A program made the translations under genes and the position numbers. The notes beneath the pieces are model-generated. The model was not told where the DNA came from. It saw only the letters and a program-made list of their open reading frames with translations, and did no database searches. A stretch of DNA of 64,000 nt from a virus: positions 1 through 64,000 of the IMG/VR virus record IMGVR_UViG_3300023179_006727; one strand, written 5' to 3'. Positions 56,471 through 60,987 of the stretch are shown here, one piece after another. Position 1 is the first letter of the stretch. Each line of letters begins with the position of its first letter.

Positions 56471-57487
56471 ATGAGTAAATTATTTAAAAAGGCAGCAGTT
56501 TTCACTGATATACATTTTGGAATGCGTAATAACAGCATCCAACACAATGAGGACTGCATACAATTCGTTGATTGGTTTATAAAAACTGCCAAGAAAGAAG
56601 GGTGTGAAACCTGTTTCTTTCTTGGAGATTGGCATCATAATCGTGCCACAGTCAACGTTCTTACCCTAAATTACAGCTTAAATGCATTGGAAAAATTAAA
56701 TGAATCGTTTGACTGCGTTTATTTTATTGTTGGTAATCATGACCTTTATTATCGAGATCGTCGTGACGTACAGAGTGTTGAATGGGCTAAGCACCTTAAA
56801 AGAATTCGTATTTGTAACGATTGGGTTATTGATGGCGATTGTGTCATTGCTCCCTGGCTTATTGGGGAAGATTATAAAAAAATACAAACCCTAAACGCAA
56901 AATACCTGTTTGGTCACTTTGAACTACCATCATTTTATATGAATGCTATGGTTGAAATGCCCGATCACGGTGAAATCAACCGTAATCACGTATTACAATT
57001 TGGGCATGTTTTCACAGGACATTTTCATAAAAGACAAACAAAAGGAAACGTAACATATATTGGTAACGCATTTCCGCATAACTATAGTGATGTAAATGAT
57101 GATGATCGTGGTATGATGATACTAGAATGGGGTAAAGAACCACAATTTCGTTCTTGGGATAATCAACCTAAATTTCGTTCGTATACTTTATCAGAAATTT
57201 TGGATAACCCTGATAAATTACTGTTACCTAATACAAGCGTAAAAATACAAATTGATCGTGAAATCAATTACGAAGAATCAAGTTCAATCAAGGAAACTAT
57301 TATGAAAGAATATAATTTAAGAGAAATGACCTTAATTCCACAACGTGTTGACATTGAAACTGATACCACAGATCAAGTAAACTTACAATTTGAGAGTGTT
57401 GATACTATTGTATTGTCACAAATTGAACAACTTGAAGCAGGTGCTTATGATAAGCAACTGCTACTTAACATTTACAGAAATTTATGA
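56471..57487 (+). CDS. gp47: Recombination endonuclease subunit (Mre11/SbcD-like)
   Basis: Phosphoesterase motifs DIHFG, LGDWHH, VGNHD and GHFH. Confidence 0.92.
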   Translation: MSKLFKKAAVFTDIHFGMRNNSIQHNEDCIQFVDWFIKTAKKEGCETCFFLGDWHHNRATVNVLTLNYSLNALEKLNESFDCVYFIVGNHDLYYRDRRDVQSVEWAKHLKRIRICNDWVIDGDCVIAPWLIGEDYKKIQTLNAKYLFGHFELPSFYMNAMVEMPDHGEINRNHVLQFGHVFTGHFHKRQTKGNVTYIGNAFPHNYSDVNDDDRGMMILEWGKEPQFRSWDNQPKFRSYTLSEILDNPDKLLLPNTSVKIQIDREINYEESSSIKETIMKEYNLREMTLIPQRVDIETDTTDQVNLQFESVDTIVLSQIEQLEAGAYDKQLLLNIYRNL

Positions 57488-59649
57488 TCGTTATAAAAGA
57501 ATTAACCATTAAAAACTTCCTATCAGTAGGCAATGTTACACAAAAAATTAACTTCAATCGCAACGATTTAACTCTTATTCTTGGTGAAAATCGTGATTTA
57601 GGTGGAGATGGTGCACGTAATGGCACAGGAAAATCCACTATTGTACAAGCACTTAGCTATGCTCTATACGGTTCAGTTCTTAATAATATCAAAAAAGATA
57701 ATCTAATTAACCTTACTAATGGTAAAGGTATGCTCGTTACCGTTGATTTTGATATCAATGGCAAAGAATATCGTATTGAACGTGGGCGAAAACCTAATAT
57801 ATTGAAGTTCTATGTAGACAATTCCGAACAAGAATTTGATGAAGATGATAGCGAAAGTCAAGGTGAAAGTAAAGAAACCCAAGCTAAAATCGAGTCTATG
57901 ATAGGCATTTCTGCTGAAATGTTTAAGCATATTGTTGCATTAAACACCTATAATGAACCATTTTTAGCACTTAAAGCAGCAGATCAACGTGAAATTATTG
58001 AACAATTGCTTGGTATTACCTTGCTTAGTGAAAAAGCTGAAGGTATTAAAGAACTCAATCGTAACGTAAAAGAACAAATTCAAAAAGAGGAATTTAAGAT
58101 ACGTAGTGTGCAAGATGCCAATACAAAAATCCAAGAACAAATTGATAATCTTAAGCGTAGACAAACACTTTGGACTACAAAAAAGAATGAAGATATTACC
58201 AATTATACGAATCAATTAATTGAATTATACAAAATTGATATTGATCAAGAAATTAGTGCGCATCGTTCTTTAGTGATTTATAATGAAAAACAAACAACAT
58301 TAACCAATGCTAAAAATCATTATGATACTGAGCTGTCTAAACTTACTAACCGATACAATGAAACTGTTGTGTCAAATCGGAAAGAAAGTAGTGCTATCAG
58401 TACACAAATGAATAATTTACAGAATATTGACATTCATATCGAAATTTCAAACTTAAAAATTATTTCTGAAATTAGGGAAAAAACAATTAAACGTGATAAT
58501 ACAAAGAAATTATTTACAAACGCTAATGCTACTTGTATACGTTTAAAAAAAGCTATTGATGATATTAATGGAGAACTAGTTAAGTTATATGACCACAAAT
58601 GTTATGCATGTGGTCAAGATTTTCATGATAATAGCCTTAAAATTGTTATAGAGGATAAAGAAACTAAGCTAGAAGAACTTAAGGTAGAATATGATACTGC
58701 ACAAACACAATACGCAGAATATGAAACTATTCTTAAAGAAATTGGTGATATACCATTAACTCCTACTGTAGTGTATAAAACTTTGGAAGAAGCGATTAAT
58801 CACAAGTCTACCATAGATTCGTTGGATGAAAAATCAAAAAAGTTGTTAGAAACTATTGACCAAGCTAAAAAATTATATGAAAAGGATATTACAGCACTTG
58901 AACAACAATACAATATAGTTGTTAGTAAGATTGGTGATATCGGAACAAAACCAACTATTATCTATAAAAATTTAGAAGAAGCATTAAAACATCAAAGTAC
59001 GGTTGAAAAGTTAGAGCAAGCCTTAGAAAAGCGTGTTGATGAGTTTGATCCTTATGCTGACCAAATCAATGATATGCAAAATAATAGTCTTGTTGAGGTT
59101 AATTTTGGCACGTTAAATGATTTAACTAAGGTATTAAAGCATCAAGAATACTTGTTAGACTTGTTAACAAATAAGAAATCTTTTGTTCGTAAGAAGATTA
59201 TTGAACAAAATTTAAGTTATTTGAATACTCGTTTAGGTAATTATTTGGATAAAATGGGTTTACCTCATCGTGTTAAGTTTCAAAATGATCTTAGTGTAGA
59301 AATTACAGAGCTAGGTCGTGATTTAAGTTATGGCAATTTTAGTCGTGGTGAAAGCACTCGTTTGATACTATCACTATCATTTGCTTTCCGTGATGTATGG
59401 GAAAACCTGTATCATAGTATCAATTTATTGTTTATTGATGAAATGATTGACAATGGATTAGATACGGTCGGTGTAGAAAATGCCATTGGATTGTTTAAAG
59501 AATTAGGTAGACGTAGAGATAAATCGGTATGGTTAATCTCACATCGTGATGAATTGGTAAGTCGTGTTAATAACGTATTACATGTGATTAAAGAGGGTGG
59601 TTTTACTCGTTACTCTAATGTCAATGAAAAATTTGCGTTGCCGATATAA
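57484..59649 (+). CDS. gp46: Recombination ATPase subunit (Rad50/SbcC-like)
   Basis: KNFLS, Walker A NGTGKS, Zn-hook CYAC, signature FSRGE, Walker B LFIDE, ISH. Confidence 0.92.
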   Translation: MIVIKELTIKNFLSVGNVTQKINFNRNDLTLILGENRDLGGDGARNGTGKSTIVQALSYALYGSVLNNIKKDNLINLTNGKGMLVTVDFDINGKEYRIERGRKPNILKFYVDNSEQEFDEDDSESQGESKETQAKIESMIGISAEMFKHIVALNTYNEPFLALKAADQREIIEQLLGITLLSEKAEGIKELNRNVKEQIQKEEFKIRSVQDANTKIQEQIDNLKRRQTLWTTKKNEDITNYTNQLIELYKIDIDQEISAHRSLVIYNEKQTTLTNAKNHYDTELSKLTNRYNETVVSNRKESSAISTQMNNLQNIDIHIEISNLKIISEIREKTIKRDNTKKLFTNANATCIRLKKAIDDINGELVKLYDHKCYACGQDFHDNSLKIVIEDKETKLEELKVEYDTAQTQYAEYETILKEIGDIPLTPTVVYKTLEEAINHKSTIDSLDEKSKKLLETIDQAKKLYEKDITALEQQYNIVVSKIGDIGTKPTIIYKNLEEALKHQSTVEKLEQALEKRVDEFDPYADQINDMQNNSLVEVNFGTLNDLTKVLKHQEYLLDLLTNKKSFVRKKIIEQNLSYLNTRLGNYLDKMGLPHRVKFQNDLSVEITELGRDLSYGNFSRGESTRLILSLSFAFRDVWENLYHSINLLFIDEMIDNGLDTVGVENAIGLFKELGRRRDKSVWLISHRDELVSRVNNVLHVIKEGGFTRYSNVNEKFALPI

Positions 59650-59666
59650 AGATATAAGTAAAATAT

Positions 59667-60179
59667 ATGCCATCTGCTAGTAAAATTAAAGGAAGTTCAT
59701 TTGAGAGGGATATTGCAAAATATTTGTCCGATCTATATAATGAGTCTTTTGTACGTGTTCCAAATAGTGGAGCATTTATTGGTGGTATTAACAAAGATAG
59801 GAAATCTTATTTGCATGAGGGACAGGTTCGCAGTTTTAAGGGAGATATAATTCCTGGGGAATCGTTTCAATTATTAAATATAGAATGCAAAAACTATGCA
59901 GATTTTCCGTTCTATCAAATTCTAACTACATGTAAATTATTAGATGATTGGTTAGATCAATTGATGGATGTAAGTGATAAGGATGATTTGAACGTTCTTT
60001 TTATGAAATTCAATCGTAAAGGTCGTTATATTGCAGTAGAACAAAAACATAAATGGAAAATGAACAATTACTTAGTATATCATAGTGATATATATGGTTC
60101 ATGGATTATCTCAGAATTAGAACATTTTTTTAAATTAAACTCAGGTCTCTTCAAAACTCTCTCCAAAAATAATACTTAG
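59667..60179 (+). CDS. Holliday junction resolvase-like PD-(D/E)XK nuclease
   Basis: SKIKGSSFER, SGA, GDII and IECK motifs. Confidence 0.8.
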   Translation: MPSASKIKGSSFERDIAKYLSDLYNESFVRVPNSGAFIGGINKDRKSYLHEGQVRSFKGDIIPGESFQLLNIECKNYADFPFYQILTTCKLLDDWLDQLMDVSDKDDLNVLFMKFNRKGRYIAVEQKHKWKMNNYLVYHSDIYGSWIISELEHFFKLNSGLFKTLSKNNT

Positions 60180-60211
60180 GTCTACTCTAAGGTCTCAAAA
60201 TCATAGAACAA

Positions 60212-60558
60212 TAGGTTTGGTTGCATGACCTGTAACGCAACGAAGGTATATCAATGAACGTTGGTCAATGCCTGAATCACTGCCGTTCTACAGTGGCTTC
60301 AATGGACTACCCTCAAGGAGGATGCTTTAAATGGGTGCTCGCATGTCACATTTCCATTGTCGTAATAGTTGAATTCATTGAGAAATGAGTTGGAGTATGT
60401 AGTAATGTACTAAGTGTCTGATCATAATAATATGGGCAAAGGGTCAGAATCAGGTTATAAATTAATTCACTGCGGTTTATAACGGGTATAAAATACCACT
60501 GATGTATACGATATATTTCTTGTTAGTAACAAGTTTTGGGGTGATATAGTCAAACCTA
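60212..60558 (+). ncRNA. Candidate ~350-nt structured non-coding RNA, family not recognised
   Basis: 12-bp end-to-end helix (60212-60223 with 60547-60558) enclosing at least 7 hairpins; a GAGA tetraloop; multiple G-U pairs that form only on the + strand; no long ORF. Confidence 0.6.
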
Positions 60559-60617
60559 CCTGAATAAAATATATGAAGTGAACCCTATCCACGTAATGTG
60601 GGCGTTGGCAAACAAAC

Positions 60618-60664
60618 AAAAAGGGACAATATAAATTATTAATTTTATATTTACCCCTTTTTTT
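60618..60664 (+). terminator. Long hairpin with T-tract, probable intrinsic terminator
   Basis: AAAAAGGG..AATATAAA / TTTATATT..CCCTTTTTTT. Confidence 0.55.
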
Positions 60665-60987
60665 GCGTTAAGCAACAACCAATTATTATAACTTTTTATT
60701 ATTTTGAGCGTCGCTGATTAAAGGCATTTGATAGAACCCCCCTAATACAAATGATGTGCTGAAAATCCCCCCACCTATTAATGGCTTTATTACCCCCCAT
60801 GGTTTTCAACACATTGAGTTTAAAAAATAAAAAAAGAAAAAAAGATTTTTGTTTTTTCGAATTTATGAGAAAAAACAAAAATAGATGACTGCAGGTCGAT
60901 AGACCAAAGTCATCTTTAAAGAAAAGCAAGGATGATATTAAGGCATTATCAACAAAAAATTCAATGTAAGTTTCAAATAAAAAATTT

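Follow-up and report, generated by a model that had tools for sequence, protein, structure and literature searches.

A large structured RNA behind a resolvase-like gene of an uncultured phage, and the apparently uncatalogued RNA family to which it belongs

A structured RNA of approximately 415 nt is found at positions 60203-60615, plus strand, of a 64,000-nucleotide stretch of viral DNA (hereafter the window: positions 1-64,000 of the 101.7-kb IMG/VR record IMGVR_UViG_3300023179_006727). It lies directly 3' of a resolvase-like gene of the PDDEXK_15 nuclease family and is followed by an intrinsic terminator. Comparison of five related copies shows that purifying selection acts on this strand to maintain an RNA fold of around 17 helices, and on comparative sequence grounds the RNA belongs to an apparently uncatalogued family of large structured RNAs that is absent from Rfam 15. 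The phage group carrying it is uncultured. A first-pass annotation, made from the letters of the window alone, had proposed either an undescribed phage non-coding RNA (ncRNA) or a folded single-strand replication or packaging signal; the former is now supported by conservation equal to that of the neighbouring gene, covariation, a strand bias in the G.U pairs, a conserved terminator and the lack of an Rfam match.

In order to find homologues of the RNA, 80 viral contigs encoding relatives of the PDDEXK gene were fetched, and the DNA downstream of that gene was searched. This yielded the loci L003 and L002, while pattern scans yielded L082 and L125, and in all four the homologue is directly 3' of the same resolvase-like gene. 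Nucleotide identity to the window copy is 71-81% across the RNA and 77-79% in the adjoining coding gene, falling to 51-54% beyond the terminator. For these five sequences, the close group, RNAalifold predicted 101 pairs, including 22 with compensatory changes. After minor editing, this structure comprised 17 helices with 103 pairs, and covariation was counted on it with two controls: partners slid by 1-3 columns, and 500 column shuffles. The proportion of cells able to pair is 96.7%, compared with 34-40% when slid, and 21 of the 103 pairs have changed on both sides, compared with 0-3 when slid; none of the 500 shuffles reached the observed values. The remark in the first-pass annotation that the non-Watson-Crick pairs are G-U on the plus strand holds: the structure contains 76 G.U cells against 5 A.C cells, and therefore it is the plus-strand transcript that constitutes the folded molecule.

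Two of the compositional features ascribed to the region needed qualification. It had been called free of open reading frames (ORFs); all six frames of 60180-60700 contain stop codons, but short ORFs do overlap the RNA, one of 44 aa on the plus strand (60254-60388) and two, of 50 and 40 aa, on the minus strand. None is a conserved reading frame, as in the case of 60254-60388 is evident from the 1-2-nt indels that separate the relatives inside it. Similarly, the region had been described as GC-richer than its flanks, which is true of the 5' half only (GC 0.39-0.44 at 60150-60450, against approximately 0.30 in the flanks).

The elements of the fold, all on the plus strand, are as follows; unless stated otherwise, the helices are supported by covariation within the close group.

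60203-60615: structured RNA body, about 415 nt, conserved from ATAGAACAA to GCGTTGGC in the close-group alignments
60212-60219: 5' strand (T)AGGTTTG, candidate pseudoknot strand, its partner being the hairpin loop at 60551-60558
60220-60241: hairpin H1, GTTGC/GCAAC, with a 12-nt loop containing GACCT; the stem covaries between family types
60244-60273: H2, AGGTA/TGCCT plus ATCAAT/GTTGGT
60278-60295: H3, CACTG/CAGTG
60296-60363: family-defining three-way junction, supported by covariation in the core alignment and by the covariance model R1
60300-06 / 60353-59: junction helix CAATGGA/TCCATTG, which covaries
within 60296-60363: the two hairpins of the junction, CCTC/GAGG and a second one with AATG at its start and CATT at its end
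within 60296-60363: conserved junction strands GACTACCC and GGATGC.TTAAA
60372-60391: H5, AATTCATT/AATGAGTT with a GAGA loop; in the family core, 5/5 pairs of its helix are compensatory
60394-60411: H6, AGTATGT/ATGTACT, a hairpin in every relative with differing stem sequences
60417-60448: H7, TCTGATC/GGTCAGA, with a conserved 18-nt loop
60449-53 / 60499-503: helix ATCAG/CTGAT, 4/5 pairs compensatory
inside helix 60449-60503: hairpin GTTATAAATT/GGTTTATAAC
inside helix 60449-60503: optional hairpin GGTAT/ATACC, deleted in L002 and L125
60504-18 / 60567-83: long-range helix enclosing two hairpins
inside helix 60504-60583: hairpin CTTGT/ACAAG
60539-61: hairpin GGGT/ACCT, with the 15-nt loop GATATAGTCAAACCT containing CAAACCT; across family types the stem covaries and the loop is conserved
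60588-60602: 3' hairpin TCCAC/GTGGG
60618-60664: intrinsic terminator, a long hairpin (60618-60657) followed by T7; -12.5 kcal/mol, z -4.1

Every hairpin that the first-pass annotation had listed can be found in the sequence. Covariation supports its helices CACTG/CAGTG, CCTC/GAGG, AATTCATT-GAGA-AATGAGTT, TCTGATC/GGTCAGA, GTTATAAATT/GGTTTATAAC, CTTGTT/AACAAG and CCAC/GTGG, and the terminator-like hairpin it placed after them is the one at 60618-60657, with its U7 tract; relatives keep both hairpin and T-run with different stem sequences (z -5.4 in L082). The conservation of H6 had to be read by eye, since MAFFT misaligns it, and GGTAT/ATACC is retained in three of the five close sequences. Helices beyond those originally listed are CAATGGA/TCCATTG, the two parts of H2, ATCAG/CTGAT and the long-range 60504-18/60567-83. 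The pairing of TAGGTTTG (60212-19) with CAAACCTA (60551-58), presented at first as a helix closing the whole structure, exists as a complementarity, but is better viewed as a candidate pseudoknot than as a closing stem because across the family its 3' partner sits in the loop of a covarying hairpin. This helix is perfect in the window and L002; in the other three of the five (L003, L082 and L125) the two pairs at its centre are broken with no compensating change, and no covariation was found in it among the close group.

Searches for a known counterpart gave consistently negative results. The Rfam scan proposed in the first-pass annotation returned no match to Rfam 15 in the whole window at gathering score, nothing relevant at E values up to 10 with 1.1-kb and 431-nt queries of the region, and no relevant match, GOLLD, ROOL, OLE, HEARO and raiA included, in 22 related loci. 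In agreement with the earlier failure to recognise tRNA or tmRNA hallmarks, ARAGORN detected neither in the 64-kb window or in 26 related loci. When three family types were compared by blastn with 50,697 records of cultured phages, no match was obtained, and a literature search for a described equivalent of the RNA found none.

For the wider family, a profile of the close group gave partial matches in L064 and L067, likewise 3' of a PDDEXK gene, and the shared block was used as a search pattern in IMG/VR, JGI metagenomes and GTDB genomes. Around 30 distinct sequences share the core, in RNAs ranging from 400 to 800 nt. This core was defined as a helix CAAyrGA/TCyrTTG with two hairpins and the strands GACTACCC and GGATGCC.TAAA; TTGTCGTAATrGT comes next, followed by a hairpin whose loop is of the GNRA type. 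Read from 5' to 3', members present AAGGTTG, which is the family-wide form of the 5' strand, and a hairpin with a covarying stem (GTTGC/GCAAC in the window; GGCAC/GTGCT, GACAC/GTGTT or GACGG/CCGTT in other types); the three-way junction with its invariant GACTACCC and GGATGCC.TAAA; TTGTCGTAATGGT followed by a hairpin looped by GAGA, GTAA or GTGA; and, usually, a covarying-stem hairpin with the conserved loop GATAGCAAAACCT. Over 18 sequences and 24 pairs of the core, the proportion of cells that pair is 88%, falling to approximately 42% when slid, and a covariation score of 0.407 compares with 0.06-0.09. Two positions of the junction helix that had been left free in the search pattern are complementary in 37/37 retrieved copies.

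The window copy fits this family well. The core covariance model, R1, has a single match in the 101.7-kb record, at 60295-60405, with 92.3 bits and an E value of 1.6e-20, and the 5' and 3' elements of the family are represented by TAGGTTTG, by GTTGC/GCAAC and by GGGT/ACCT with the loop GATATAGTCAAACCT. R1 also finds a further subtype, L037, which is 3' of a PDDEXK gene and has a new compensatory pair. Less specific probes were discarded: the exact 17-mer GATATAGTCAAACCTAC was of no use, most of its matches falling in coding genes such as that of the portal, and a relaxed gapped pattern returned spurious coding matches in L133 and L134.

Members of the family are found in three genomic settings. 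In the first, that of the window, L064 and L037 types, the RNA follows the PDDEXK gene directly, in the gene order of the window. In the second, it forms a separate cassette of approximately 650-700 nt among unrelated genes in other viral contigs, which is preceded by an intrinsic terminator and by a promoter of the form TTGACT-17-TATAGT, and has its own terminator at the 3' end. The neighbours of such cassettes include a DNA methyltransferase in L107, judged by the DPPY motif read from the translation, and HNH endonuclease and tail fibre genes (PHROGs) in L104; as a promoter and terminator of its own thus accompany it beside unrelated genes, the RNA can be a transcription unit in itself. The third setting comprises marine contigs and the chromosomes of Marivita and Roseovarius metagenome-assembled genomes (Rhodobacteraceae), in which the order is a divergent small recombinase gene, an ORF of about 110 aa, the RNA and a DUF6626 gene. 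The recombinase is of the tyrosine type, around 190 aa long, in L136, L165, L169 and L170, and a serine resolvase in L145. Three copies of the RNA are present in one Roseovarius genome, and only 2 of 151 sampled Rhodobacteraceae genomes have any, a distribution consistent with its being carried by mobile DNA. Should the Rhodobacteraceae copies be present in cultured strains, they may make the function of the RNA accessible to genetics. The positions of these features, together with two kinds of recurrent motif seen alongside the RNAs, are given below.

L107:1400-1480 (minus strand), L104:10020-10100 and L148:1600-1660: cassettes with a near-consensus sigma70 promoter, TTGAC.-17-TATAGT/TATTCT
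L170:1-7700, L165:4879-6835, L169:3528-5527, L136:8509-10739 and L145:870-3050: recombinase/RNA/DUF6626 modules of the third setting
L136:10160-10320, L138, L020:3870-3930, L036:3960-4010 and L044: stem-loops of the GCGAAGC type

Stem-loops capped by GCGAAGC, GCGTAGC or GCGGAGC recur 3' of the RNAs in several lineages. The cassette copies, bounded as they are by promoter and terminator, resemble a mobile promoter/stem-loop cassette.

On balance, the RNA is probably a stand-alone structured molecule that acts through its tertiary structure, likely in conjunction with a protein. In the window, it would be made by read-through of the gp47/gp46/resolvase operon and perhaps processed into a stable RNA. 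Its AGGTTTG 5' strand may form a pseudoknot by clamping onto the conserved ...CAAACCT of the hairpin loop, and the invariant junction nucleotides (GACTACCC, GGATGC.TTAAA and TTGTCGTAAT) could form a specific tertiary site. The RNA would then most likely provide a protein with a structured partner or scaffold, rather than act as a regulator of the adjacent gene.

A number of observations weigh against this proposal. The minimum free energy of 60212-60601 on the plus strand is -94.6 kcal/mol, a z-score of only -0.54 relative to dinucleotide shuffles (-0.35 on the minus strand); the first-pass annotation had named an unremarkable folding energy among the outcomes that would count against an RNA, and formally this is such an outcome, although given the comparative evidence it was judged not to be decisive. 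The close group itself consists of only five sequences, and MAFFT aligns the wider family imperfectly. A promoter scan 5' of the RNA in the window found nothing sigma70-like above chance, which is why read-through from the operon is inferred. Among four read runs compared, three recorded as RNA and one, X15, probably DNA, coverage was limited to single contigs of relatives at a depth of 2-3.2 over parts of 60100-60338 (X16, X17 and X19), with no coverage of the 3' two thirds of the RNA in any of the four; those from RNA libraries, two short contigs over 60123-60338, could represent DNA carry-over. The protein partner is putative. Lastly, the Rhodobacteraceae and marine copies have no obvious terminator between the RNA and DUF6626, such that the RNA could act there as a cis-acting leader of that gene.

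Extended to the whole family, this last point becomes the alternative that the RNA is a cis-acting mRNA element: a structured 3' untranslated region of the recombination operon in the window, where it would stabilise the mRNA or mark it for processing, and a long regulatory DUF6626 leader in Rhodobacteraceae. The 23 nt that separate stop codon from RNA and the failure to detect a promoter in the window would both be expected of such an element, as would the DUF6626 gene directly 3' of the RNA in 9 of the 11 non-phage-type copies. Nevertheless it appears unlikely, as the RNA has different flanking genes in each of the three settings, the cassette-type copies carry their own promoter and terminator, and some 17 covarying helices with invariant junction nucleotides far exceed the needs of a stabiliser. 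A role as leader is excluded in the window, because the ORF list contains no plus-strand gene 3' of the RNA. As for DUF6626 itself, a structural model (predicted local distance difference test score 90) has a weakly Cro/C1-type helix-turn-helix-like region in its first 55 residues (Foldseek E ~1.5), and a literature search on the domain found no paper mentioning it. Neither DUF6626 nor Phage_integrase was found in the 101.7-kb record, which is approximately 27% complete.

A ribozyme, processing itself or acting on another RNA, is an improbable explanation. The invariant nucleotides of the three-way junction, together with the pseudoknot, would make up the active site, and the size, multi-domain fold, long-range helices and strictly conserved unpaired junction nucleotides are all typical of catalytic RNAs; however, no Rfam ribozyme family is similar, the topology is not that of a group I intron, and no conserved cleavage or ligation site was identified.

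The position of the RNA suggests a further possibility, namely that it is a cofactor which guides, targets or regulates the PDDEXK resolvase, or the small tyrosine and serine recombinases, with short, helically phased repeats as the DNA sites and the slot behind the gene as a holder of interchangeable RNAs. The features of this slot are listed here.

59667-60179, plus strand: PDDEXK_15 nuclease gene, 170 aa (Pfam PF24608, E 9.7e-24)
60143-60195, plus strand: three AGGTCT repeats (at 60143, 60178 and 60190) spanning the end of the resolvase-like gene and the 23-nt spacer
L004:3586-3990, L005, L007, L012, L023 and L027: elements of other types 3' of a PDDEXK gene
L033, L040, L062 and L065: elements of other types 3' of a PDDEXK gene
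L036, L044, L054, L072, L010, L020 and L057: elements of other types 3' of a PDDEXK gene
L054:3560-3620, L064:3540-3570, L065:3550-3600 and L057:3550-3590: lineage-specific repeats

In the window, a gp47/gp46-like Mre11/Rad50 pair (56471-59649) precedes the resolvase-like gene, the stop codon of which is at 60177-79, and a T4-type baseplate gene is situated further along on the opposite strand. Cultured phages have homologues of the resolvase-like gene that carry the annotation 'RusA-like Holliday junction resolvase'. The nearest of them, at no more than 45% identity, belong to the jumbo phages Salicola SCTP-2 (440 kb), PA5oct (287 kb) and Sinorhizobium Phosso (469 kb); in Salicola phage SCTP-2 and in PA5oct, a Pseudomonas phage (45% identity), no non-coding gap follows the resolvase gene. 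CheckV estimates the completeness of the 101.7-kb record at 27%, implying a full genome of several hundred kb. The stretch itself occurs in freshwater and lake metagenome runs.

At about 50 of the 80 PDDEXK loci, a stretch of 400-950 nt without an ORF of 80 aa or more is found immediately 3' of the gene. The gaps that were sampled have a GC content of 34-45%, compared with approximately 30% in the flanks of the window, and those in L028-L030 and L052 look coding on the opposite strand. At least three further types of element, recognised by neither R1 nor Rfam, occupy the same slot. Two of them covary strongly, with compensatory changes at 22 of 60 predicted pairs in six sequences of the L004 type and at 18 of 45 in seven sequences of the L036 type. 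Furthermore, a 3' block, GGTA..GC..AACCGCCTC, is common to the L064 and L037 subtypes and to other types found at the slot, which hints at modular exchange. The overall pattern is that, in most phages of the group, the recombination genes are followed by a large covarying RNA of one kind or another, the structural types numbering at least four.

Almost all of these loci also have short direct repeats between the stop codon and the RNA, spaced at 10-13 bp and specific to the lineage. The unit is AGGTCT in the window, the relatives of which have 2-4 copies of AGGTC(T) at the equivalent position, and TAGGCA, AGGCT, CTAATA, CTAACACA, CAATAACA or CTAATATCTA elsewhere. A recombination cofactor would make sense of these repeats, of the placement of the window, L064 and L037 subtypes alike directly 3' of a PDDEXK gene, and of the divergent tyrosine (L136, L165, L169 and L170) and serine (L145) recombinase genes of the third setting. 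A search for complementarity between repeat and RNA gave the idea no clear backing. No exact 6-mer complement of the repeats was found inside the RNAs of 22 loci, and the sole correspondence in the window, of the GACCT in the H1 loop to AGGTC, is a 5-nt match of the kind expected by chance in around a third of 400-nt sequences. Because of this result, and because the cassette-type copies have no recombinase nearby, such a partnership is regarded as very improbable; the shared position, where convergent gene blocks meet, may be mere inheritance.

The single-strand replication or packaging signal of the first-pass annotation, to which an origin's R-loop or primer RNA may be added, has likewise lost ground and is now highly improbable. 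The element does adjoin recombination and replication genes, with iteron-like direct repeats upstream and C-rich tracts and inverted repeats downstream (60729-60919). G.U wobble is typical of RNA helices, however, and the excess of 76 G.U over 5 A.C cells, along with the terminator and, in relatives, the sigma70-type promoter that bound the element, argues for a transcript, while the low identity downstream (51-54%) means that the C tracts are not conserved. These consist of three C6 tracts 3' of the terminator (60729-60805 and 60884-60918). In the same region, L003, L082, L002 and L125 all retain the hairpin AGATGAC...GTCATCT (60886-60916), which looks like the terminator of the convergent minus-strand genes.

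A degenerate or free-standing group I intron, prompted by TTCAATGGACTA and GATATAGTC, which we take to be like the R and S elements of such introns, was rejected as having a negligible chance of being correct: Intron_gpI was matched neither at gathering score nor at E up to 10 (1.1-kb and 431-nt queries), the R-like GGACTA of the P7 that a P3-P7 pseudoknot core would require belongs instead to the covarying helix CAATGGA/TCCATTG (TG/CA, TA/TA and CA/TG, with CT/AG in L037), the S-like TAGTC sits in the loop of a covarying hairpin, and the RNA is located between a stop codon and a terminator with no plus-strand ORF after it, so that no gene is interrupted.

Large, elaborately folded ncRNAs are rare, and new classes of them, such as RNase P, group I and II introns, tmRNA, OLE, GOLLD, ROOL and HEARO/omega RNA, have tended to reveal new biochemistry. 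The present family appears new, and can be compared with known systems in structure and setting. The T4-like phage group I introns are of similar size, are likewise located in phages and share two short core-like motifs with the window RNA, but differ from it in topology, Rfam model and genomic setting. STAXI and EFASI, Rfam motifs that are structured RNAs beside integrase genes, recall the Rhodobacteraceae and marine RNA beside small recombinase genes on sporadic, mobile-looking DNA; by contrast, the present RNA is much larger, has no Rfam match and in its phage copies lacks an integrase. The bridge RNA of IS110 and the omega RNA of IscB/TnpB also abut a nuclease or recombinase gene, with lineage-specific repeats at the junction. 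Here, however, the neighbours are PDDEXK_15, a Phage_integrase catalytic domain or a serine resolvase, rather than IS110, IscB or TnpB, no guide-target complementarity beyond the 5-nt match was found, and the RNA occurs without such a gene as well.

A catalogue of 10,006 candidate structured RNAs has been assembled from covariation in the viral intergenic regions of IMG/VR (PMC10690425); its main text, to which the comparison is confined, describes nothing comparable, and fragments of the window RNA might be among its entries. In kind, the RNA is similar to the large ornate RNAs GOLLD and ROOL, which have been shown by electron cryo-microscopy to form homo-oligomeric assemblies (PMC12286853). 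The Rfam models of these two RNAs match none of approximately 20 loci tested, the window RNA and its relatives have no tRNA genes nearby, and the core of the family is a specific three-way junction not described for either. Like GOLLD and ROOL, on the other hand, it is several hundred nucleotides long and of unassigned function, has many covarying helices and conserved junctions, is carried by phages or prophages and occurs in lake and ocean sequences.

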